A stretch of 64,000 nucleotides of DNA, taken from IMG/VR virus record IMGVR_UViG_3300012952_003952, positions 160,001 through 224,000 of that record, one strand, 5' to 3'. The notes beneath the pieces are model-generated. The model saw only the letters and a program-made list of their open reading frames with translations. It searched no databases and was not told the origin of the DNA. The position numbers and the translations under genes are program-made. Positions 27,736-38,614 of the stretch are shown one piece after another; position 1 is the first letter of the stretch; the number at the start of each line of letters is the position of its first letter. The stretch comes from a virus (lineage: Duplodnaviria > Caudoviricetes).

Positions 27736-28584
27736 ATGAATTCGAAATACAAAAATTTAAATCAAGCCTTTGTAGAAGAGTTAGTCGATTGCCACAAGAA
27801 CGGCGTAGAAGTTGAATCTCGTGGCTTCGTACAAAAAGAAAAACTTTTCTCTTCTTTTATAATTCAAGATCCCACCGATTTGCGAATTGATGTCCCAGCT
27901 AGAAAGTTCAATGAAGACTATGCAATTTTAGAATGGCTTTGGTACCTAAACTCTGACTCTAGAATAAAGACTATCGGTAAATTTGCAGATATTTGGAACA
28001 AGATTGCAGATTCGCAAGGGGTCGTTGAGTCTAACTATGGCTCTTATTTAAAGCCGTGCTGGTATGACTTAGTAGATGAGCTTATATCTGATAGAGATAC
28101 CCGTAGAGCAACTTGCGTAATTAATCAGCCATACCATAGGTTCAAAAACCCAAAAGACTATCCTTGTACGCACTATATTCACTTTTTTATCAGAGAAGAA
28201 GCTCTTCACATGGGCGTATATATGCGGTCTAATGATGCAGTTTTTGGTTTTTGTAACGACGTTTTCACCTTTGCGTTGTTTCAACAGCTTATGCTAAATG
28301 AACTAAACGCTCGCGGTGGTAAACTTTCATTAGGAACATACTACCACTCGGCTGGAAGCTTTCACGTATACGATAGACATTATTCTATGATGGAAAAGAT
28401 AGCTGAAAATTATTTTGTGAAAGCTAGAAGAAATGGGTATCCAACCGACTTAAAGAAAATAGTGCTAGATCCCAATTTAACCTGGCCGAAAATGGAAAAC
28501 TACACGTCTTTTTTCAATGAAGACTTAGACAAAGAAGAAGTTTTAAATACAATTAAAAAGACTAAGGAAATTATATTCAAATGA
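27736..28584 (+). CDS. Thymidylate-synthase-family enzyme resembling T4 gp42 dCMP hydroxymethylase
   Basis: SNYG, DTRR, DYPCT (catalytic Cys), MRSNDAVFGFCND and GSFHVYDRH. Asp occupies the position of E. coli ThyA Asn177, as in T4 gp42 (MRSNDVVFGFRND). Confidence 0.8.
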   Translation: MNSKYKNLNQAFVEELVDCHKNGVEVESRGFVQKEKLFSSFIIQDPTDLRIDVPARKFNEDYAILEWLWYLNSDSRIKTIGKFADIWNKIADSQGVVESNYGSYLKPCWYDLVDELISDRDTRRATCVINQPYHRFKNPKDYPCTHYIHFFIREEALHMGVYMRSNDAVFGFCNDVFTFALFQQLMLNELNARGGKLSLGTYYHSAGSFHVYDRHYSMMEKIAENYFVKARRNGYPTDLKKIVLDPNLTWPKMENYTSFFNEDLDKEEVLNTIKKTKEIIFK

Positions 28585-28862
28585 ATATTCTAAAAAAAGC
28601 AAATGAGATAATCAATGAAAGATCTGAAGAAAAAGAGCGCCAATACGGCCCAATGGGTGAAGGCCTTGAAAGAGCTGCGATGATTGCTTCTGGAATAACG
28701 GGTAAAGATTTAACAGCAGACGATATTTTTGCATGCCTCATCGGCCTTAAATTTTCTAGACATTCGTATAACTACAAAGAAGATAATTTTCTAGATGCTG
28801 CTGCTTATTTGGGAGCGTGGAACAATTACCAACAGGAGAAATTAAAAAGTGAAGATAAGTAA
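28581..28862 (+). CDS. Small all-helical phage protein (DUF6378-like)
   Basis: ILKKANEII...RQYG...LIGLKFSR...DNFLDAAAY pattern recalled for this family. Confidence 0.6.
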   Translation: MNILKKANEIINERSEEKERQYGPMGEGLERAAMIASGITGKDLTADDIFACLIGLKFSRHSYNYKEDNFLDAAAYLGAWNNYQQEKLKSEDK

Positions 28863-29283
28863 AGTAAGGGCAGTTAAAACACCGCAAAGGGGGACTCCAG
28901 AGTCAGCTGGAATTGATTTTTTCGTGCCAGAGGGAATGATAGCTAAATTATCGCCTGGAGACTCTTGCTTGATGCCAAGCGGAATCAAAGCCAATGTTCC
29001 ATCTGGCCATGCATTAATAGCGTTTAATAAGAGTGGAGTAGCAGTTAAGAAATCTCTTCACGTTGGGGCATGCGTCGTAGACGAAGATTATCAGGGCGAA
29101 ATTCACCTTAATTTAATCAATGTTGGCTCGAGCGTTGCAGAGATAAAATCTGGAGAAAAAATAGTCCAATTTATTTTACTTCCTGTTTTTTATGACACAA
29201 TTGAAGAAGTAGAATTGGAAAACCTTTACGAAGACGAAACTGTTCGAGGTGAAGGTGGTTTTGGTAGCACGGGAGTAGAATAG
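28849..29283 (+). CDS. dut: Trimeric dUTPase
   Basis: SAGID, KSG, GACVVDEDYQGE and RGEGGFGSTG motifs. Confidence 0.93.
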   Translation: MKISKVRAVKTPQRGTPESAGIDFFVPEGMIAKLSPGDSCLMPSGIKANVPSGHALIAFNKSGVAVKKSLHVGACVVDEDYQGEIHLNLINVGSSVAEIKSGEKIVQFILLPVFYDTIEEVELENLYEDETVRGEGGFGSTGVE

Positions 29284-30353
29284 TGGATTATTTTGTAGAT
29301 TATGAAATTCCTAAAAACTTTAAGATAGGGATCGACGGACTAGAGAGAAACATTCCGGCTAGAAAACACAGCCACAATGCTGCCTGGGTTCATCTCTACA
29401 AAAATATGCTACAATCTGCTGGCTGGAGTGATGTACACGTCTTAGGCAATCATGACACTTACGAAGGTTATGATGCTATGATATTTTATCCAGGAATTGC
29501 TTACGCTGGAACGATTAACTTCTTTTTTGGAGTTGACGACAATGTAGTTAGAAGGTTCTCCAGAATTCAAGATTTTGAAGGTCCGACTTTTATTTTAAAT
29601 CATGAAATGCCGCTCATTGGAGCGACGATCAGCAAAAGACTGCACAATAAATCGACAAGCTCGAAAATTGGAAATCTTAAACTGAGCTTATTAGATGATA
29701 TTTGCAAATCTACTCGCAGAATAGATTATGTTGAAAGATCAACAAAGCTTTGCTTTGGAGACAGTCATTGTTTTTCTGCTTATCTTCCAGGGTATTCTGT
29801 TTGCCGAAATGACGGGCTCACTCTTTTTTCTACGCTTCGCGATGGAGTAAAAGAGACCATTGAAGAAAAATATGGAGCTTCTGTTGAAAATTTGACTCAT
29901 CTTACTTTTTATATGGGCAATATTGATATAAGGCACCACTTGATGCGCCAAGAAAATCCATATGAAAAAATCCACGCTATGACTATCGAGCTTTCACACC
30001 AGCTTAAAAAACTTGATATACCAAACATTGAACTAGTTCACGCACTGCCTATCGAAAATATTTCTAGAAAACTTCCTAAAACTGGATATTATAAGAAGAC
30101 TCCATATTTCGGAACTTGGGAAGAAAGAACAAAATTAGTCAATACATTCAATGCCGCTGTAGATAGAATTTGTATAGAAAACAAATGGAATTCTTTCCAC
30201 TGGCCAGCTAAATTTTTAAATGATTCTGGTGAATTAGACTTTGAATATATGGAGCGCCCTAAAAGCGTACACTTAAGCCCGCTTTCTTATAGGTGGGACC
30301 TTTTTGAAAATCAATTAAATTTATTGCATAGTAATCAAAACAACGGAGAATAA
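29283..30353 (+). CDS. Two-domain protein: N-terminal segment resembling the T4 beta-glucosyltransferase N-domain, C-terminal SGNH-like domain
   Basis: YDAMIFY...TINFFFG compared with T4 BGT YDRLIVVNSSINFFGG; FGDSH (block I), YMGNID (block III) and SVHL (block V). Confidence 0.5.
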   Translation: MDYFVDYEIPKNFKIGIDGLERNIPARKHSHNAAWVHLYKNMLQSAGWSDVHVLGNHDTYEGYDAMIFYPGIAYAGTINFFFGVDDNVVRRFSRIQDFEGPTFILNHEMPLIGATISKRLHNKSTSSKIGNLKLSLLDDICKSTRRIDYVERSTKLCFGDSHCFSAYLPGYSVCRNDGLTLFSTLRDGVKETIEEKYGASVENLTHLTFYMGNIDIRHHLMRQENPYEKIHAMTIELSHQLKKLDIPNIELVHALPIENISRKLPKTGYYKKTPYFGTWEERTKLVNTFNAAVDRICIENKWNSFHWPAKFLNDSGELDFEYMERPKSVHLSPLSYRWDLFENQLNLLHSNQNNGE

Positions 30354-30354
30354 T

Positions 30355-31545
30355 ATGCCAAAAAACAAGTCAATTAGAGTTGCAATCGTCGGAGTCGGAA
30401 ATTGTGCTAATTCCTTTTACCAGGGCTTAACGTATTATGCGGGGTACACCGCTGGACAAGAGCGCGATGGAGTGATGAAGAGCCGAATCGGAGGATATTC
30501 GGTAGCTGATCTCGAGGTTGTAGCAGCATTCGACGTTGATAAACGAAAAGTTGGAAAGTGTTTTAGAGAAGCTATGCTAGCCAAACCAAACTGTACTCCA
30601 AGCTATGAGGCAAATGTTCCTGACGGTCCCGTAGTTCAAATGGGCCCAATCATGGACGGTGTTCCAAATTTGATGGCTAATTATTCTGATGAAGAAGCGT
30701 TTAGAACTGCTGATTTAGAACCAGTAGATGTGGCTCAAGTGTTATTAGACCGCAAAGTGGATATTCTTATCAACTATCTTCCTGTTGGTTCTCAGAAGGC
30801 CACCGAGTGGTATGCAGAACAGTGCCTTAAGACTGGAGTTTCTCTTCTTAACTGTATTCCAGTTTTTATTGCTTCTAATCCAGTTTGGGAGCAAAAGTTT
30901 ATTGATGCTGGAATTCCACTCGTTGGCGATGACATGAAATCTCAATTTGGGGCCTCTATTATGTCTCAAATGCTTCAAGAACTAGCTTTTGCTCGAGGTC
31001 TAAATGTTAAAGCTCACATTCAGCGAAATGTCGGTGGCAATACTGATTTCTTGAACATGGTAGATCAATCTCGGCTGAAATACAAGAAAGTTTCAAAGGA
31101 GAATGTAATTCGATCTCAACACGTAATTCGTGGTGTAGACCCCGAAGAATCTTTCCTCCATGCTGGGCCGTCTGAATATATTCGCTACTATGGAGATAAC
31201 AAGGTCGCAAACTTCCGAATTGAAATGGAGGGATTCCTTGGTGCCCCAGTTATTTTAGACGCGCAGCTTTCTGTAATTGACTCTCCTAACTCTGGAGGCG
31301 TTGTAATCGACGCCGCTCGGTATCTAAAAGTCGCCAGAGAGATGGGCATTGTAGGGGCTCTCAGAGGTCCGTCTGCTTTTACTCAGAAGACTCCGCCTCA
31401 ACAGCTTATGTTTAGTGAAACTCTTTATGAATGCGACGCTCTTTCTGATAGGAGGCTCACTCGATTTACTAAGCGCCAAACAGAAAAATACAGCGCTGAA
31501 GAGCTTTACCTATCGTGTCCAGCAGGAAACAAGGAAGTAGATTAA
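30355..31545 (+). CDS. ino1: Myo-inositol-1-phosphate synthase
   Basis: IVGVGNCANS (NAD binding), NYLPVGS, GDDMKSQFGA, GGNTDFLNM and DSPNSGGVVIDA motifs. Confidence 0.95.
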   Translation: MPKNKSIRVAIVGVGNCANSFYQGLTYYAGYTAGQERDGVMKSRIGGYSVADLEVVAAFDVDKRKVGKCFREAMLAKPNCTPSYEANVPDGPVVQMGPIMDGVPNLMANYSDEEAFRTADLEPVDVAQVLLDRKVDILINYLPVGSQKATEWYAEQCLKTGVSLLNCIPVFIASNPVWEQKFIDAGIPLVGDDMKSQFGASIMSQMLQELAFARGLNVKAHIQRNVGGNTDFLNMVDQSRLKYKKVSKENVIRSQHVIRGVDPEESFLHAGPSEYIRYYGDNKVANFRIEMEGFLGAPVILDAQLSVIDSPNSGGVVIDAARYLKVAREMGIVGALRGPSAFTQKTPPQQLMFSETLYECDALSDRRLTRFTKRQTEKYSAEELYLSCPAGNKEVD

Positions 31546-32261
31546 TGGCTAAATTGCATGAGCAAAAAGGAAAACTTTTTAATCCAGACTCTGAAGATTT
31601 TGAAGAGTGTGTAATAAAGTTTAACGGAAGGAATGGGTTTTGGTACAGACCAGGCACTTTTGATTTAAATTCTATAAGAGAGTGCAGAGACAATTATAGC
31701 GATATTGACACTTGCGGGAAAACAGTTTTAGATTTAGGAGCCAACATTGGAGGATTTTCAAGAATGGCTCTAGAAAAAGGAGCTAAAAAAGTAATAGCTT
31801 TAGAGCCATGCCCTCATAATTTTCAAATTTTAGAGATCAATGCCCCAAATGCAGAATGTCTAAATGCTGCAGTTTGCGAAAGCAAGGTAAAAGAAGTAGT
31901 TTTTCATTATGCTGGATCTAAAAGAAACTCAGTGTCGTCTTCTACTCTTAAAAGAAGAAATGCTTCTGGAGTATCTATTGCAGTACCAGGATTATCATTT
32001 TCAAGTCTTTTAGAAAAATATAGGCCAGAAATATTAAAAATAGACATTGAAGGTAAAGAGTACGACATTTTAGATTCTATTAAAGAAATTCCAGATTTCG
32101 TAGAAATAGTAGGGATTGAGTTTCACAATACTCGTAAGCCATACTCAGAATATCCAGTTAAATTTTTCCCAGAGTCCACTTGGAAGAAAGTAGAACACCC
32201 TATTTTGATGTTCGGACAGAAAAAAGTTTTAGATTACACTTTTTATAGAAAGTATGCATAG
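31545..32261 (+). CDS. FkbM-family SAM-dependent methyltransferase
   Basis: VLDLGANIGGFS, IALEP, NAAV and ILKIDIEGKE motifs; start overlaps the ino1 stop (TAATG). Confidence 0.88.
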   Translation: MAKLHEQKGKLFNPDSEDFEECVIKFNGRNGFWYRPGTFDLNSIRECRDNYSDIDTCGKTVLDLGANIGGFSRMALEKGAKKVIALEPCPHNFQILEINAPNAECLNAAVCESKVKEVVFHYAGSKRNSVSSSTLKRRNASGVSIAVPGLSFSSLLEKYRPEILKIDIEGKEYDILDSIKEIPDFVEIVGIEFHNTRKPYSEYPVKFFPESTWKKVEHPILMFGQKKVLDYTFYRKYA

Positions 32262-32270
32262 GAAATATTA

Positions 32271-32687
32271 ATGAAAGTAAATGGTTTTGATATTGATGGA
32301 GTTATCCATCTTGGAGACGGAGTCTGCGGCATTCGCCCGGGCCCTGGAGATGTTATCATCACAGGACGAAGCTTTGAAGAAGAAGCTGAGACTCTAGCTT
32401 TTCTTCGGCGCAATGGAATTAATAACCCAGTTTTTTTTAACCAGTGCCATTATGAGGAAAAATCTCGAACAGGGTCAGGAAATCATAAGGCGGAAACTAT
32501 TAAGCTTCTCCACAGAGCTGGCTTAAGCGTTCAATATTTTTTTGAAGATGATGAAGTTCAAAAAGCTGAAATTGAAAGAGGCATCGAAGAAGTCTCAACT
32601 TGGGGAATCGGAACTAAAGTTATTCACGTCAACAATCCTCATGTTAAGAAAGAAAATAGACGTCATTTAGAGGATTTAAATGAGTAA
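32271..32687 (+). CDS. Capless HAD-family phosphatase
   Basis: GFDIDGVI (DxD), ITGRS, a conserved Lys and FFEDD. Confidence 0.8.
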   Translation: MKVNGFDIDGVIHLGDGVCGIRPGPGDVIITGRSFEEEAETLAFLRRNGINNPVFFNQCHYEEKSRTGSGNHKAETIKLLHRAGLSVQYFFEDDEVQKAEIERGIEEVSTWGIGTKVIHVNNPHVKKENRRHLEDLNE

Positions 32688-34134
32688 TTCTGAACTTCTT
32701 AAAATGAGGGATGAAGAACTCTTTGCAGAGATACCCACTTACAAAAAGCAAGATTTTGTCGACTTTATAAAAGAGCTTAACAGAAGAGAGTACTTAGTAA
32801 GATTTGCAAAGTCGTGTACTTTTGACTCTTTTGAGCATTTGCCTGGAACTGGATTTAAATACGGGAACGGCTTTATAGTAGACGGCAAATCAGTACCTTA
32901 CTTCCACCCCAATCGTAGTTTTCATGATGAGATAATTTGGTTAAACGAGAACCTATTCTATAATCCCCAAGCTACGTTTGAAGATAAACTTATTAATGCG
33001 GCGATAGTGAAATTCTATGGGCCTTCTAATACCCTTAAACTAATTGCTGAGGGCACCGGCAAGAAATTCGTGGACTACAAGAGGTTCGTGGGAGATCCTA
33101 AATACTTGAGGCAGGTTTGCGTCAATTTAGAAACAGCAGTTAAGAATAAAGAAAAGATTTATGGAACAACTGAGCTTAGGACAAGCTTACAAACAGCTGG
33201 TAGAAATTATGCTAGAAGCGTTGGTTCTCCAATTGATAAAATAGAATTAATTCCAGTTTCTGAAAGGAAATCTCGTACGTGCCGTCCCTCTGATATTCTT
33301 TTTTGGTTTACTAAAATCGGCCCTGATTTTGTTAAATTTTATAAAACAACACCCAACATGGAAGAGTCTTTTAAGTTTTTAAATTCATTTCGAGGAATTG
33401 GAAATTATTATGGATACCATTTTAGTTGTAACCTTGCTCGAATGCCAGAAGTAGGAAATTTAATTTTTAAGGGAACTCCTGGAAAAATTGACGAAGACGA
33501 CGAGTATGTAGTTCCTGGGGTTGGAGCAATGCAAGCGATTAATTGGTTTTATGAACACAGGGGACACTCAATTAATACAAAAGTTGGAAAGAAATTAATC
33601 AATGCTATTCGACGTCACCAAAATAGTTTCTTTGACTTAAATAATGCTGATAATTCTAAATTCTATATGGAAAAAGTTTCTGAACTGGGATATTTTACTA
33701 ATTTTGGATGTGAAATATCTTGCTGCCAGTTTGGAGTTTATCGTCGACTAAGAGAAGATAAAAAATTAGCTCTAAGGAGAGCAGCAGCGCCAATATCAAG
33801 AGAGGAAGTAAAAATGATTCTTACGCCCAAAACACTAATGCAAAAACTCGGTCTTTTATCTGAAGAAGATTCTAATGTTGAAAATAAAAATCAAAGTATT
33901 GAAAAAGATTCTTCACTAGATTTTTCTTCGACTAGCAAAGAAGACTTGATCCTTAACATCATTGATGAAGCTGGAGGTTCTTGTTCACATTCTTCAGTTG
34001 CTAAATTAATCGAAGAAAAAGGATACACTCAGTATAAGCAAAATGGTTCTTGGAAAGAGAGCTGGATGATAATGAGGCAACTTGTTGAAAAGGGGGCCTT
34101 AGTAAAAGACGGAAAATTTTATCGGAGGTCATAG
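32680..34134 (+). CDS. aGPT-Pplase / 5-HMUDK-helical-like DNA base-modifying enzyme (HhH-glycosylase fold) with a C-terminal winged-helix-like domain
   Basis: YFHPNRSFHD, FRGIGNYYGY, DEYVVPGVGA and EISCCQFGVYRR parallel the FTN.YR.D / PGIG.F / GPGA / LCE.DKY.R pattern recalled for this family. Confidence 0.6.
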   Translation: MSNSELLKMRDEELFAEIPTYKKQDFVDFIKELNRREYLVRFAKSCTFDSFEHLPGTGFKYGNGFIVDGKSVPYFHPNRSFHDEIIWLNENLFYNPQATFEDKLINAAIVKFYGPSNTLKLIAEGTGKKFVDYKRFVGDPKYLRQVCVNLETAVKNKEKIYGTTELRTSLQTAGRNYARSVGSPIDKIELIPVSERKSRTCRPSDILFWFTKIGPDFVKFYKTTPNMEESFKFLNSFRGIGNYYGYHFSCNLARMPEVGNLIFKGTPGKIDEDDEYVVPGVGAMQAINWFYEHRGHSINTKVGKKLINAIRRHQNSFFDLNNADNSKFYMEKVSELGYFTNFGCEISCCQFGVYRRLREDKKLALRRAAAPISREEVKMILTPKTLMQKLGLLSEEDSNVENKNQSIEKDSSLDFSSTSKEDLILNIIDEAGGSCSHSSVAKLIEEKGYTQYKQNGSWKESWMIMRQLVEKGALVKDGKFYRRS

Positions 34135-35312
34135 TGTCAGATATTAAGTGGGGAACAATTATTCCTCTTATTGGCGGAAGCGCTATAGGGTGCTCACAAG
34201 CTACTAAAAATAAACCAGAGTTTCATCTTAGCTACTCTGCTTTCGGCGCTAACGAAAAATATCTAACTGACTACTGGAAAGATGTTCCGAGAATAGTTTT
34301 AGATGAAGGTGGAAAAATACCAAACGAAAAAATTGATTTTATCAATTCTGTTTGTCCGTGCGCAGGCCTAAGCCAGCTTAATACTTCTAGAAGTAAAGAT
34401 ATGCGTGAATCTAAAAACTATTGGATGTACGAATCTGCACAGAGAATCTTAAGCGAACTACGCCCTAGAGTTTATTGGGGAGAAAATGCGCCCGGCCTTT
34501 TTACTAATTCAGGCGCGTACGTGCGTGATAAGCTTAAAGTTTTTGCTAAAGAAAACGGCTACACTTTTTCTCTTTACAAGACCGATACGCAAAGGCACGG
34601 TATTCCGCAACGCAGAGTAAGAACTTTTTACTTTTTCTGGAGAGACACTAACCCTCCTCTCTTGAGCTATTTTAATAACCCTCCCATTCCATTCGCCGAG
34701 TACATAAGACAGATACCGCAATCTGCAACCCTTCAAGATCAATTTAACATCGAAGGGAAAATCTCTGAAAATTTTGATTCTTATGCTTTTGTGTTACAAT
34801 ATCTTGGGTTGGCGCATGAAGAGTTCGTGAAGTCTAATGATTCTGGCTCTATTCACTCTATTTTTTCTTATCTATCAGAAAATAATCTTTTAGCCGAGTG
34901 TATTGAGTGGATTGAAAAAAGAAATATTGAAGAAACTGCAGAACACAGACGACTCAAAGCTATTTACAAAAAAGTTCAAGCGGGTGGAAGATTTATGGAT
35001 GCTTCTCCTGGATATTATTACAACCGCACTAATGCAATCGTAGGAAGAACCTTGACCCATTTAGTACACCCCACTGAAGACAGAGGGATGTCTATTAGAG
35101 AGCTTCTTCATATGATGGGACTGCCCCATGATTTTGAAATGGGCGATAGAAAATCTCTAAATGTAATCGCTCAAAATGTTCCAACTTGTACAGCTAGAGA
35201 TATGGCAAGTCAAGTTATAGAATACTTAAGAGGTGATTTACAAATTGCAGAAAACAGCTTTTTAATGCAAAATAACCTAAAAGAGGAGATTACATTATGC
35301 GAGCCCTTGTAA
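34134..35312 (+). CDS. C5-cytosine DNA methyltransferase homolog with a non-canonical motif I
   Basis: CPCAGLS (motif IV), GENAPG (VI), PQRRVR (VIII) and RELLHMMGLP..F / AQNVP (IX-X); motif I reads IPLIGG rather than FxGxG. Confidence 0.8.
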   Translation: MSDIKWGTIIPLIGGSAIGCSQATKNKPEFHLSYSAFGANEKYLTDYWKDVPRIVLDEGGKIPNEKIDFINSVCPCAGLSQLNTSRSKDMRESKNYWMYESAQRILSELRPRVYWGENAPGLFTNSGAYVRDKLKVFAKENGYTFSLYKTDTQRHGIPQRRVRTFYFFWRDTNPPLLSYFNNPPIPFAEYIRQIPQSATLQDQFNIEGKISENFDSYAFVLQYLGLAHEEFVKSNDSGSIHSIFSYLSENNLLAECIEWIEKRNIEETAEHRRLKAIYKKVQAGGRFMDASPGYYYNRTNAIVGRTLTHLVHPTEDRGMSIRELLHMMGLPHDFEMGDRKSLNVIAQNVPTCTARDMASQVIEYLRGDLQIAENSFLMQNNLKEEITLCEPL

Positions 35313-36283
35313 CTGGCGGATGCGGTTTTATCGGATCTTGTTTAACTAAAAAATTGGTAGATTTAGGCTGGGACGTAGAAATAGTAGATGATATGTCTAA
35401 TGGAGATTATTCTTTTTTAGAAGAGTATTCTTTTCGTAGCGTCCCTGTTCAAATGGGACATATTTTCGAAAATCAAAATTTGAAAAAAGATGACGTTATT
35501 ACTGTTTTGGTAGGAGATTTTGTTAGCCAAGAAGTTGTTAGAAGGATTGTTGAAAAAAAATATGACGTAATTTTTCACCTTGCAGCTAACCCAAGAGTAG
35601 AATACTCGGTGCAAAATCCGCTAGAGACTACAGACGAAAACCTTACAAAGACCATAAGGCTTTTTACTCATGCTGTGGGTAATGTCAAGAGAGTTGTTTT
35701 TTCTTCTAGTTGCTCAGTGTATGGAGACCCTTGGAGTCTTCCAACTACAGAAAGCCATGGAAAAAACCCTAACAGTCCTTATGCTCTTCAAAAGCAATGT
35801 GTTGAAGAATACGCTAAACTCTACTCAAAAATATATGATTTAGATGTAGCTTGCTTGAGGTACTTTAACGTATATGGTCCATTTCAGCATGGCGACTCTC
35901 CTTACTCTACTGCCATAGTTTCTTGGTGTGATAAAGTATCTAAGGGTTTGCCTCTTCGGAGTGATGGAGATGGCACTCAATCTAGAGACATGGTTTTTGT
36001 AGAAGATGTAGCGCGAGCTAATATTTTAGCTGCTACTAGAGAAGAAAATTTCAATGGAAAGTCTATAAACATAGGAAGCGGCGCTTCTTATACCAATAAT
36101 CAGATTTTAGATATTTTTAAAAATCAATTTGGAAATTTAGAAATCACACATGCTCCAGAACGGCCTGGAGACGTAAAGCACACGCAAGCAGATGTTAAAG
36201 AAGCTAGATCTAAATTAGGCTTTACTACTGAATACAGCTTAGAAGAAGGGTTGAAAAAGACCTTTGCTTGGTGGGACTTATAA
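35297..36283 (+). CDS. NAD-dependent nucleotide-sugar epimerase/dehydratase
   Basis: TGGCGFIG, HLAA, FSSS, YALQK (YxxxK) and RYFNVYGP motifs. Confidence 0.93.
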   Translation: MRALVTGGCGFIGSCLTKKLVDLGWDVEIVDDMSNGDYSFLEEYSFRSVPVQMGHIFENQNLKKDDVITVLVGDFVSQEVVRRIVEKKYDVIFHLAANPRVEYSVQNPLETTDENLTKTIRLFTHAVGNVKRVVFSSSCSVYGDPWSLPTTESHGKNPNSPYALQKQCVEEYAKLYSKIYDLDVACLRYFNVYGPFQHGDSPYSTAIVSWCDKVSKGLPLRSDGDGTQSRDMVFVEDVARANILAATREENFNGKSINIGSGASYTNNQILDIFKNQFGNLEITHAPERPGDVKHTQADVKEARSKLGFTTEYSLEEGLKKTFAWWDL

Positions 36284-36837
36284 TGACAAACCCTCAATTC
36301 ATTATTTTTACTGGACCGATGTTTGGAGGCAAGACCACGAGGCTATTGTCTGCTTTAGATAGATACGTTCACCAAAAGAAAGATGTTTTAGCTTTCAAGC
36401 CAGATATCGACAAAAGGTACGGGAAAGAGTCTATTAACACTCACACTGGCGGAAAGATTGATGCCATCAGAGTTGCGACTGGTGAAGATATAGCACAATG
36501 CGTTCTAGAAAAAGCAGAAAATAAGTTGGTAGAAATCATTGCAGTAGATGAAGCTTTCATGATACCCGGCTCTGCTAACGTGCTAATAAATCTTTTCAAC
36601 AAAGGATTCACTATCTTGATATCTACTTTACAGCTATGTTCTGACGGTACGTCTTATAAAGAAATTAGAGAAATGATGCCTTGGGCTACTAAAATAGAAA
36701 TCTGCCCTGCGGTTTGTACAGTGTGTGGATCCGATGCGTATTACACTTTTAAAAAAGGCGGAAATAGCCACCAGCAAATTGAAGTTGGAGGAGCTGATTT
36801 ATACGAGCCCCGCTGTTTAACTCACTTTGAATTTTGA
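36283..36837 (+). CDS. tdk: Thymidine kinase (type II)
   Basis: GPMFGGKTT, VDEA, C-terminal CxxC and GG..LYEPRC motifs. Confidence 0.9.
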   Translation: MTNPQFIIFTGPMFGGKTTRLLSALDRYVHQKKDVLAFKPDIDKRYGKESINTHTGGKIDAIRVATGEDIAQCVLEKAENKLVEIIAVDEAFMIPGSANVLINLFNKGFTILISTLQLCSDGTSYKEIREMMPWATKIEICPAVCTVCGSDAYYTFKKGGNSHQQIEVGGADLYEPRCLTHFEF

Positions 36838-36844
36838 ATAATTA

Positions 36845-36873
36845 ATGAAATTATTCCCACTTTTTATTATAAT
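36845..36873 (+). promoter_or_regulatory. Sigma70-like promoter
   Basis: ATGAAA, 17-bp spacer, TATAAT (36868-36873); GAGG RBS follows. Confidence 0.6.
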
Positions 36874-36894
36874 ATAGATAGAGGACTATGAAAT

Positions 36895-37323
36895 ATGCCT
36901 GAATACAAAAGCTCTTGGAAATCAAAATCATCTAGTCATTTGACCCCATGGGGATCTGAGATCCGGTGGGCTGCTACTTCTGGCTGTGTAGGTAAATGTT
37001 TAAGCGTAAAAAAGGGAATGAGAACCAGTTTAAAGTACTATAAAATGAAAGATGAAGTGCTATTTTTGTATCGCGGCAAAATATTGGTTACTCACGGAGA
37101 CGAGAAAACTATAGAAGATCCAACTCGCCACCCGTATGTTAAAAGCTATCTTGCTCCAGGAGAGATGGTGATAATTCAAAGCGGTTGTCCTTATAGAATA
37201 GAAGCTTTAGAAGATTCTGAAGTTATTGAGATAGGAACGAACCGCGGTGCTGGAATTGGTGACCGAGTTATGGTAGAAGATGATTTTGGTAGAGTAGAAA
37301 AACCAGAAAGTGGAGAAATATAA
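36895..37323 (+). CDS. Cupin-fold protein (sugar isomerase-like)
   Basis: TPWGSE, LAPGEMVII..G.PYRIEA and VIEI; the usual metal-binding His residues look partly replaced. Confidence 0.6.
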   Translation: MPEYKSSWKSKSSSHLTPWGSEIRWAATSGCVGKCLSVKKGMRTSLKYYKMKDEVLFLYRGKILVTHGDEKTIEDPTRHPYVKSYLAPGEMVIIQSGCPYRIEALEDSEVIEIGTNRGAGIGDRVMVEDDFGRVEKPESGEI

Positions 37324-38223
37324 ATGATCGTAAGTGATCCATCTTCAGTAAACGTGGTAATTTATCACGCCGATTGTACGGACGGTTTCGGCGCAGCATA
37401 TTCAGCTTGGAAACTCCTCGGCAATCGCGCAGAGTACTACGCTTGTAAGCACGGAACGCCACCGCCTGAAGTAAAAGACAAAAACGTTGTAATCTTAGAT
37501 TTTTCTTTTGATAATGCGACGACTAAAAAAATGATAGAAGAAGCATCTGCTTTATTGGTTATTGATCACCATAAATCAGCAGTAGTAGAGCTTCACGATA
37601 TCAGCAACACTATTTTTGATATGACAAAGTCTGGAGCTATGTTATCATGGGAATGGTTTCATCCAGGAAAAGAGCCGCCAAAATTTATAAAATACATTCA
37701 AGACAGAGATTTGTGGAAGTGGGAACTTGATTATTCTAAAGAGTTTAGCGCTGCGTTTGATATGGTGCCATTCGAGTTTGAAGAGTTTGAAAAATTTGAA
37801 GACGATTCAGTTTTTGATGATGCAGTAAAACGAGGTTCTTACATTTTAGCTTATAGTAAAACCGTCGTCAAGAAAGTATGCGAAAAAGCCCAACCTAGAA
37901 AAATGGATGGGAAAGATGTTTTGGTGGTTAACGCTTCTCACTGGATGTCTGAGATTGGCTCAAGGCTAGCTCCTGATTGTGATTTCGCAATGATATGGTA
38001 TTGGGATCATGATGCACAGCATACAAAAGTTTCTCTGAGAGCTTTTCATGACGCGGTTGATGTTTCTGAGATCTCGAAGAAGTTTGGCGGAGGTGGCCAT
38101 AAAAAAGCAGGAGGGTTTCAACTTCCTAAGAATAAACACGTAGAAGATTTATTCGACAAACCAAAACCAGCAAGAAAGAAAAGAGCTTCAAAAACAAAGG
38201 TTAAACAAGATGAGTCGTCCTAG
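37324..38223 (+). CDS. DHH/DHHA1-family phosphoesterase
   Basis: YHADCTDG, ILDF, IDHH and GGGHKKAGG motifs. Confidence 0.88.
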   Translation: MIVSDPSSVNVVIYHADCTDGFGAAYSAWKLLGNRAEYYACKHGTPPPEVKDKNVVILDFSFDNATTKKMIEEASALLVIDHHKSAVVELHDISNTIFDMTKSGAMLSWEWFHPGKEPPKFIKYIQDRDLWKWELDYSKEFSAAFDMVPFEFEEFEKFEDDSVFDDAVKRGSYILAYSKTVVKKVCEKAQPRKMDGKDVLVVNASHWMSEIGSRLAPDCDFAMIWYWDHDAQHTKVSLRAFHDAVDVSEISKKFGGGGHKKAGGFQLPKNKHVEDLFDKPKPARKKRASKTKVKQDESS

Positions 38224-38614
38224 TTGGGATCAGATCTGGATGAATTTTGCAGAATCTATTTCTGAAAGATCTTATGATCCAAGGTTTCAAGTTGGAGCAG
38301 TCGTTGTAACTGAAGACAACAGCCAGGTTTTAGCTGTTGGATACAATGGAAATTATGCCGGCGGACCCAATCAAGTAGAGTCAGAAACCCCTGGAGAGTC
38401 TGGTATGCTACATGCTGAAATTAATGCGCTCTTAAAAATGGATTATAATAACCCTAAAAAGAAAAAGCTTTATTTAACTCTATCGCCTTGTAGAATGTGC
38501 GCAAAGGCTATAATTAATAGTGGAATTAAAGAAGTAGTCTACGCTGAAGCTTACAGGGATCTTTCGGGGATAAAACTTTTAAAAGAATGTGGCATATCAG
38601 TAAGACACTTTTGA
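38210..38614 (+). CDS. dCMP deaminase
   Basis: HAEINAL and PCRMC zinc-binding motifs, GYNG. Confidence 0.92.
   Translation: MSRPSWDQIWMNFAESISERSYDPRFQVGAVVVTEDNSQVLAVGYNGNYAGGPNQVESETPGESGMLHAEINALLKMDYNNPKKKKLYLTLSPCRMCAKAIINSGIKEVVYAEAYRDLSGIKLLKECGISVRHF

Follow-up and report, generated by a model that had tools for sequence, protein, structure and literature searches.

DNA cytosine C5-methyltransferases are among the best-understood enzymes acting on DNA, and the recently described CmoX is a natural user of a different cofactor. The window analyzed here is a stretch of 64,000 nucleotides from a virus of the Caudoviricetes (positions 160,001 to 224,000 of the IMG/VR record IMGVR_UViG_3300012952_003952), and it contains a gene for a relative of these enzymes that belongs to an unusual clade: its members keep the catalytic machinery, replace the residues that define the group placed at C5, and travel with genes that would fill C5 before replication. 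What, then, does such a protein do to cytosine? An earlier note, made from the letters of the window, had proposed that the motif that binds S-adenosylmethionine (SAM) is rewired while the catalytic motifs are intact, and that the enzyme may use a different electrophile or process 5-hydroxymethylcytosine (hmC). We find a rebuilt cofactor side together with invariant catalytic residues, in agreement with the first part of this proposal and in partial support of the second, and we favor, with a probability of roughly 0.4, that the protein is a catalytically active enzyme of an hmC module that would act on 5-substituted cytosine, or perform other non-methyl chemistry, and would not carry out plain conversion of cytosine to 5-methylcytosine (5mC).

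The protein has a predicted C5-methyltransferase fold and an intact catalytic core

The open reading frame (ORF) for the methylase relative (Table 1) is a real gene, and it is the sole PF00145 gene of the 242-kb record. Pfam PF00145 (DNA_methylase) matched the protein with 65.7 bits (cut-off 22, E 6e-18) over profile positions 56-300; because the match starts at profile position 56, the N-terminal SAM half goes unrecognized by the profile. The score with NCBIfam TIGR00675 (dcm) was 37.2 bits (cut-off 100.65), and sequence matches to solved methylases were restricted to motifs IV-VIII and IX-X. An AlphaFold2 model, for which a 25-sequence family alignment served as input, had a mean confidence score (pLDDT) of 89.5. 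In a structure search, residues 1-368 of this model superposed on complete C5-methyltransferases, i.e. CmoX (PDB 8YF3, Z 24.2), DNMT1 (24.0), HaeIII (23.1) and HhaI (22.5, against residues 7-325 of the chain); Dnmt2 structures were also matched (Z 19-20). Judged by the model, the protein folds as a complete two-domain C5-cytosine methyltransferase.

The catalytic PC, EN and QxRxR motifs had been reported as retained, and Cys76, Glu117-Asn118 and Gln159/Arg161/Arg163 are indeed present as well as invariant in the clade. Moreover, we found two substitutions beyond those described earlier: PCQ of motif IV is changed to PCA, and ENV of motif VI to ENA.

The cofactor side is rebuilt

Motif I was correctly read as TIIPLIGG without FxGxG, and I10, P11 and L12 stand at the place of F-x-G. 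The reading of motif X as AQNV and not GNSV holds also when aligned residue for residue: in a column-for-column HMMER alignment, AQNVP corresponds to GNAVP of M.HaeIII and to GRMVP of CmoX, which places Gln347 at the position of HhaI Asn304 and CmoX Arg350. By contrast, the statement that the acidic residue of motif II is not evident stands only in part. At the canonical position, approximately S33-S35 (a Ser, a Tyr and a variable residue) as placed only by spacing and by predicted secondary structure (model strand 31-33), there is no conserved acid; however, an invariant Asn40-Glu/Asp41 pair follows six residues later and may represent a relocated ribose-binding acid. In HhaI and CmoX, ~22 residues separate motif I from the acid, and profile-profile alignment (hhalign) to canonical methylases leaves residues 1-36 unaligned. 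Together with Asp57, the invariant Asn-Glu/Asp pair suggests that an adenosyl-type ligand may still bind.

In M.HhaI, Gln82, Tyr254 and Asn304 adjoin the transferable group; the Q82A substitution lowers methylation ~16-fold and admits larger groups, and N304A has a stronger effect (PMC3526304). Because the positions of Gln82 and Asn304, the Val of ENV and motif I are all changed in the window protein, the site facing C5 and the methionine half of SAM appears to be rebuilt.

The altered motifs are a conserved signature

We examined conservation in two alignments, one of 185 distinct relatives (35-100% identity) and one of 130 cluster representatives (30-50% identity). The signature is 95-100% conserved in the 185 relatives, and the same pattern was observed in the 130 representatives. 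Among the 185 relatives, P11, L12, G14, G15, F37, N40, C76, G78-L79-S80, E117-N118-A119-P120, R161, R163 and Q347-N348-V349-P350 are 100% conserved, and Gln159 is likewise invariant in the clade alignments. All relatives (185/185) have Ile or Val in place of the motif I Phe, Leu in place of the first Gly, and the pattern P-L-x-G-G. Ala77 is present in 183/185 and Asp57 in 177/185, while residue 41 is Glu in 148 and Asp in the other 37. In the representatives, every sequence that is aligned at the column in question has Cys76, Glu117, Arg161 and Arg163; residue 77 can be Ala, Ser or Gly, but Gln does not occur there, and Ala119 is conserved at 98%. Residue 347 is Gln in 97% of the representatives and Lys in three of them. 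Engineered M.MpeI N374K reportedly uses carboxy-SAM (Cx-SAM), and the Lys at residue 347 of the three distant representatives recalls that change. Because hardly any variation of the signature occurs in the 185 close relatives or in the 130 distant ones, the sequences argue that the altered motifs are a selected signature and not decay.

The clade is large. An exhaustive search returned 300 clusters with E below 1e-30, i.e. the clade comprises at least 300 clusters at 50% identity, and a word-index search returned 2886 proteins with E below 1e-5. Members come nearly all from marine and freshwater metagenomes; a cluster look-up gave metagenomic members only, and the named cultured carriers found are limited to Pseudoalteromonas phage XG4 and phages of the S-TIM5 group (31-32% identity). 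A megablast search with the operon against phage records found no similar DNA. Literature searches on the clade, on DNA modification in S-TIM5 and on methylase-like enzymes of hmC phages found no direct description.

The gene is linked to thymidylate synthase homologs of the cytosine type

As the earlier note had it, the gene lies inside a modification operon, and we find that this operon includes a cytosine-type thymidylate synthase (TS) homolog. The GTG start codon of the methylase relative (34134-34136) shares its G with the TAG stop codon of the preceding gene, a GGAGG ribosome-binding site precedes it, and there is a 16-base overlap between its 3' end and the next gene. Thus, the gene is a coupled member of a long operon on the + strand, and the GTG/TAG overlap suggests translational coupling to the preceding gene.

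In an alignment, the TS homolog has Asp at the position of E. coli N177 and T4 gp42 D179, where SPO1 gp29, which serves 5-hydroxymethyluracil (hmU), and the TS of phi3T have Asn; going by this residue, the protein is probably a deoxycytidine monophosphate (dCMP) hydroxymethylase. TS genes of the Asp type, often with a dCMP deaminase gene in cis, have been tied to phages with 5hmC or 5mC DNA (bioRxiv 2024.12.05.627091). Because the TS partner is of the cytosine type, C5 of the phage cytosines is probably already substituted, which would leave little substrate for plain methylation. A cluster for hmU (thymidine) hypermodification, suggested by the kinase-like PF18723 neighbor, is ruled out by the Asp at the TS specificity position.

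The same linkage was observed across the clade. We examined 80 viral contigs carrying a clade member for TS homologs within 10 kb; such a homolog was present on 38 of the 80 contigs, and the cytosine-specifying Asp was found in 38/38. Four larger contigs without a nearby TS encode an Asp-type TS elsewhere, some of them together with a normal Asn-type TS. The argument made earlier that methylation would be redundant if C5 is substituted thus gains from the Asp-type TS of the operon, from the 38/38 linked TS homologs, and from the replacement of the residues that wall C5 (Ala77, Ala119 and Gln347).

The other neighbors differ between phage lineages, but all of them are enzymes that use hydroxyl groups or activate sugars, and at least three cluster types and phage backbones are represented. 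In a T4-like lineage, the neighbors are an Asp-type TS, a deaminase and a glycosyltransferase; in another lineage, they are an aminotransferase, a HAD protein, a kinase, a nucleotidyltransferase, a glycosyltransferase and an epimerase; and in Pseudoalteromonas phage XG4, they are a TS, a nucleotidyltransferase-kinase fusion and two glycosyltransferases. A Tet_JBP (PF12851) dioxygenase is absent from the 242-kb record itself and from four related contigs, and none was found among the Pfam-scanned neighbors; therefore, a route of 5mC formation followed by oxidation is unlikely. A search of the 242-kb record, the estimated completeness of which is 57%, gave no match to CmoA (TIGR00740).

Two further TS homologs were observed. 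In cyanophage S-TIM61 of the S-TIM5 group, the annotated 'ThyA' (L001 5781-6617) has Asp (GVPLDMF) at the base-specificity position, and the clade member of these phages lies 2.4 kb away on the opposite strand; because the annotated ThyA has Asp, the cultured cyanophages of the S-TIM5 group may make C5-modified dCMP. The second, an Asp-type TS homolog (L098, G005:C1:9064-9579) on a 389-kb record that is 98% complete and classed as a provirus, contains one in-frame TGA; the gene may be broken, the codon may be recoded, or the TGA may be an error.

Fusion proteins and copies on eukaryote-like contigs

One clade member, P0121 (889 aa, L095 9001-11670), is a single ORF that joins the kinase-like protein to the methylase relative, and it lies in an operon with the gene order of the window operon. 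The fusion is found on one contig, the record name of which is labeled '2x' and thus possibly indicates low coverage, and an assembly error is possible; the fusion is weakly supportive of functional coupling between the two proteins.

The P0122 group (81 member sequences) carries a C-terminal extension of ~370 aa in which, by eye, a Lys/Glu-rich linker, a C2H2-like zinc finger and basic RSGR repeats can be discerned. This extension had no match in PDB, Pfam or Atlas and looks like a DNA-targeting module. Two members of the P0122 type (L102 6920-9250 and L099 7065-9386) are intronless and have the full IPLIGG/ENAP/AQNVP signature, and contigs of this type carry HSP70 and protein-disulfide-isomerase genes that are split as if by introns. 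Judged from these gene structures, the observations suggest that a phage gene was transferred into a marine eukaryote.

Layout of the locus

The positions of the motifs and of the operon genes are summarized in Table 1. Within this base-modification operon, an inositol-3-phosphate synthase homolog (TIGR03450, E 6e-98) and an FkbM-family methyltransferase gene occupy window positions 30355-32261, and their presence hints at an inositol-derived DNA adduct. Moreover, the small cupin encoded at window positions 36895-37323 matches the phage 'cysteine dioxygenase' family phrog_7851; it is conserved, at a distance of two genes downstream, in every close relative of the operon (L003-L007).

Table 1. 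Motifs of the methylase relative and genes of the surrounding operon, in window coordinates.
Feature	Position	Strand	Remarks
Thymidylate synthase homolog, gp42-like	27736..28584	+	Asp at base-specificity position (RSNDAVFGFCND)
dUTPase-family enzyme, phrog_17781 protein, inositol-3-phosphate synthase homolog, FkbM methyltransferase, small PNK/HAD-like protein	28849..32687	+	
5-hmdU-DNA-kinase-like helical protein (PF18723)	32680..34134	+	Translationally coupled to methylase relative
GGAGG ribosome-binding site	34124..34128	+	Read from sequence; five bases 5' of GTG start
C5-methyltransferase-fold ORF	34134..35312	+	392 aa; ORF call, Pfam, model, structural matches
Motif I variant I9-I-P-L-I-G-G-S16	34158..34181	+	Canonical F-x-G-x-G-G; P11, L12, G14, G15 invariant
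F37-G-A-N40-E41 on helix B	34242..34256	+	F37, N40 invariant; residue 41 always Glu or Asp
Asp57 directly after strand 3	34302..34304	+	Spacing fits motif III Asp (HhaI D60, CmoX D69) binding adenine N6
Motif IV C74-P-C76-A77-G-L-S80	34353..34373	+	Cys76, catalytic nucleophile; Ala77 at Gln of PCQ (HhaI Gln82)
Motif VI G-E117-N-A119-P	34479..34493	+	Glu117 kept; Ala119 at Val of ENV
Motif VIII P-Q159-R-R161-V-R163 (QxRxR)	34605..34622	+	Sequence alignment
Motif IX region H312-P...R317...R322-E323	35067..35102	+	Sequence alignment
Motif X A346-Q347-N-V-P350	35169..35183	+	Gln347 at position of HhaI Asn304 / CmoX Arg350
NAD-dependent sugar epimerase/dehydratase, thymidine kinase, cupin (cysteine-dioxygenase-like), DHH phosphoesterase, dCMP deaminase	35297..38614	+	Downstream operon

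Discussion

The contributions of this analysis are the mapping of the altered residues to HhaI Gln82 and Asn304 and to CmoX Arg350, the finding that residue 41 is acidic throughout, the count of 38/38 for the linked TS homologs, and the kinase fusion. On the reading that we favor, i.e. an active enzyme that acts on 5-substituted cytosine or performs other non-methyl chemistry, a cytosine-type base would be flipped out of DNA and held by Glu117 and Arg161/Arg163, and Cys76 would add to C6 as in M.HhaI, as the invariance of these residues suggests. The substitutions in turn suggest that the site next to C5 would be reshaped by Ala77, Gln347, Ala119 and a rebuilt glycine loop for the methionine part of SAM. 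The flipped base would most likely be the phage's own 5-substituted cytosine, either hmC or a phosphorylated or glycosylated form of it, and the 5-CH2-X group would be exchanged or transformed by means of the covalent activation at C6, with a cosubstrate in a pocket that possibly still binds an adenosyl-type ligand through Asp57, Asn40-Glu/Asp41 and Phe37. Covalent complexes with 5hmC DNA have been described for canonical C5-methyltransferases, which can release the hydroxymethyl group as formaldehyde (PMC11347137); because ordinary methylases process 5hmC in this way, the fold is chemically capable of hmC processing. The more specific form of the idea, in which attack of Cys on C6 of 5hmC in DNA leads to exchange, removal or rebuilding of the 5-CH2-OH group, possibly without SAM, is possible but less likely than not.

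Several observations weigh against the reading that we favor. Asp57 and the invariant Asn-Glu/Asp pair are what would be expected if SAM were still bound. Full replacement of cytosine by hmC is what we infer, and a partial replacement would leave substrate for an ordinary methylase. The clade is also found in clusters with glycosyltransferases only, in which no step obviously needs a methylase relative. Moreover, intronless copies with the full signature lie on eukaryote-like contigs that show no genes for hmC nucleotides, and the enzyme may thus not need pre-made hmC. Finally, literature searches found no paper on the clade.

These points bear most directly on a strong rival explanation, which we consider a serious contender even if less probable, namely that the protein is an ordinary SAM-dependent DNA C5-methyltransferase with a clade-specific but functional SAM pocket that methylates unreplaced cytosines, or a specific motif, as added protection. 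The fold is complete and all catalytic residues are present; the GG of motif I, Asp57 and the invariant acid at residue 41 are kept; and no hmC genes lie close to the copies on eukaryote-like contigs. Motifs I and X also vary in proven methylases, e.g. DNMT3 and Dnmt2. Phages also often stack modification systems (PMC7824862). However, all 38 linked TS homologs are of the cytosine type, implying that C5 is occupied, and the substitutions fall at positions where HhaI Q82A and N304A lose methylation activity (PMC3526304). Moreover, the motif I aromatic residue, the first Gly and the canonical motif II acid are all gone, and the dcm score is far below the cut-off. We keep the reading of an enzyme acting on 5-substituted cytosine, or with other non-methyl chemistry, ahead of ordinary methylation.

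A second rival, which we regard as improbable, is that a modified SAM-type cofactor donates a non-methyl group to unmodified cytosine at C5, as in the reaction of CmoX with Cx-SAM. Such a reaction would require that C5 be free although the phage makes 5-substituted dCMP. Among the structural matches CmoX ranks first, its cofactor-selecting motif X position is changed here, and the natural, Q82A-like Ala77 would give room for a larger group; however, residue 347 is neither Arg nor Lys in the window protein, SPPC is lacking, CmoA was not found in the protein's own record, and no cofactor-synthesis gene is constant over the differing cluster types. It is even less probable that the protein is not the DNA-modifying enzyme of the pathway at all but a helper that binds or flips hmC DNA, or an enzyme that acts on RNA, like Dnmt2, or on host DNA. 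A role independent of the adduct would fit its presence in many cluster types, and Dnmt2 structures are among the matches; against this, the strict invariance of the Cys, Glu117 and both Arg argues for catalysis on a cytosine base, and the gene is tightly coupled in an operon with DNA-modification genes.

Should the clade act on hmC or transfer a different group, it would represent a new reaction type in phage DNA hypermodification, a recurrent unexplained gene of abundant marine phages would be explained, and the enzyme could become a tool for labeling or rewriting hmC. If the reaction is exchange or removal of the hydroxymethyl group, it would be a natural counterpart of methylase side reactions so far seen only in vitro. 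If the protein is just a methylase, it shows the extent to which a SAM pocket can drift.

Comparison with known systems

The clade shares with M.HhaI and M.HaeIII the two-domain fold (Z 22-23), the Cys of motif IV, the Glu of motif VI, QxRxR of motif VIII, motif IX and the VP of motif X. It differs from them in having [IV]PL[IV]GG for FxGxGG, no acid at the canonical motif II position, PCA for PCQ, ENA for ENV and [AC]Q for the GN of motif X; moreover, it is linked to dCMP-type TS genes and not to restriction enzymes, and its sequence identity to M.HhaI and M.HaeIII is only 12-18%.

CmoX of Synechococcus phage S-B43 (PDB 8YF3), a Cx-SAM-dependent DNA cytosine C5-carboxymethyltransferase, has the same fold and is the top structural match. 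In CmoX, the Arg at the Asn304 position binds the carboxyl group of Cx-SAM while Phe25, Glu47 and Asp69 hold the adenosine (PMC12783734). Its cofactor choice is accordingly set at the motif X position that is altered here, and CmoX also feeds a hypermodification pathway (PMC12783734). Where CmoX has Phe25, Glu47, SPPC and Arg350, the window protein has Ile10, no acid at the Glu47 position, VCPC and Gln347, whereas the equivalent of Asp69 is kept (Asp57). Unlike CmoX, the window protein has neither CmoA nor an amide ligase nearby.

The C5-methyltransferases of phages that are associated with TET/5mYOX enzymes (PMC8256090; bioRxiv 2023.12.21.572611) are likewise encoded in clusters for the hypermodification of cytosine, next to genes for glycosyltransferases and epimerases. 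However, they make 5mC for the neighboring dioxygenase, whereas here the hydroxymethyl group would be supplied before replication by the Asp-type TS homolog. The engineered M.HhaI variant Q82A/Y254S/N304A (PMC3526304) resembles the clade in that the Gln82 and Asn304 positions are altered in both, with the Ala at the Gln82 position occurring naturally here. It differs in that it keeps the SAM motifs and uses synthetic SAM analogs, whereas in the clade the residue corresponding to Asn304 is the longer Gln, and not Ala, and motif I is rebuilt as well.

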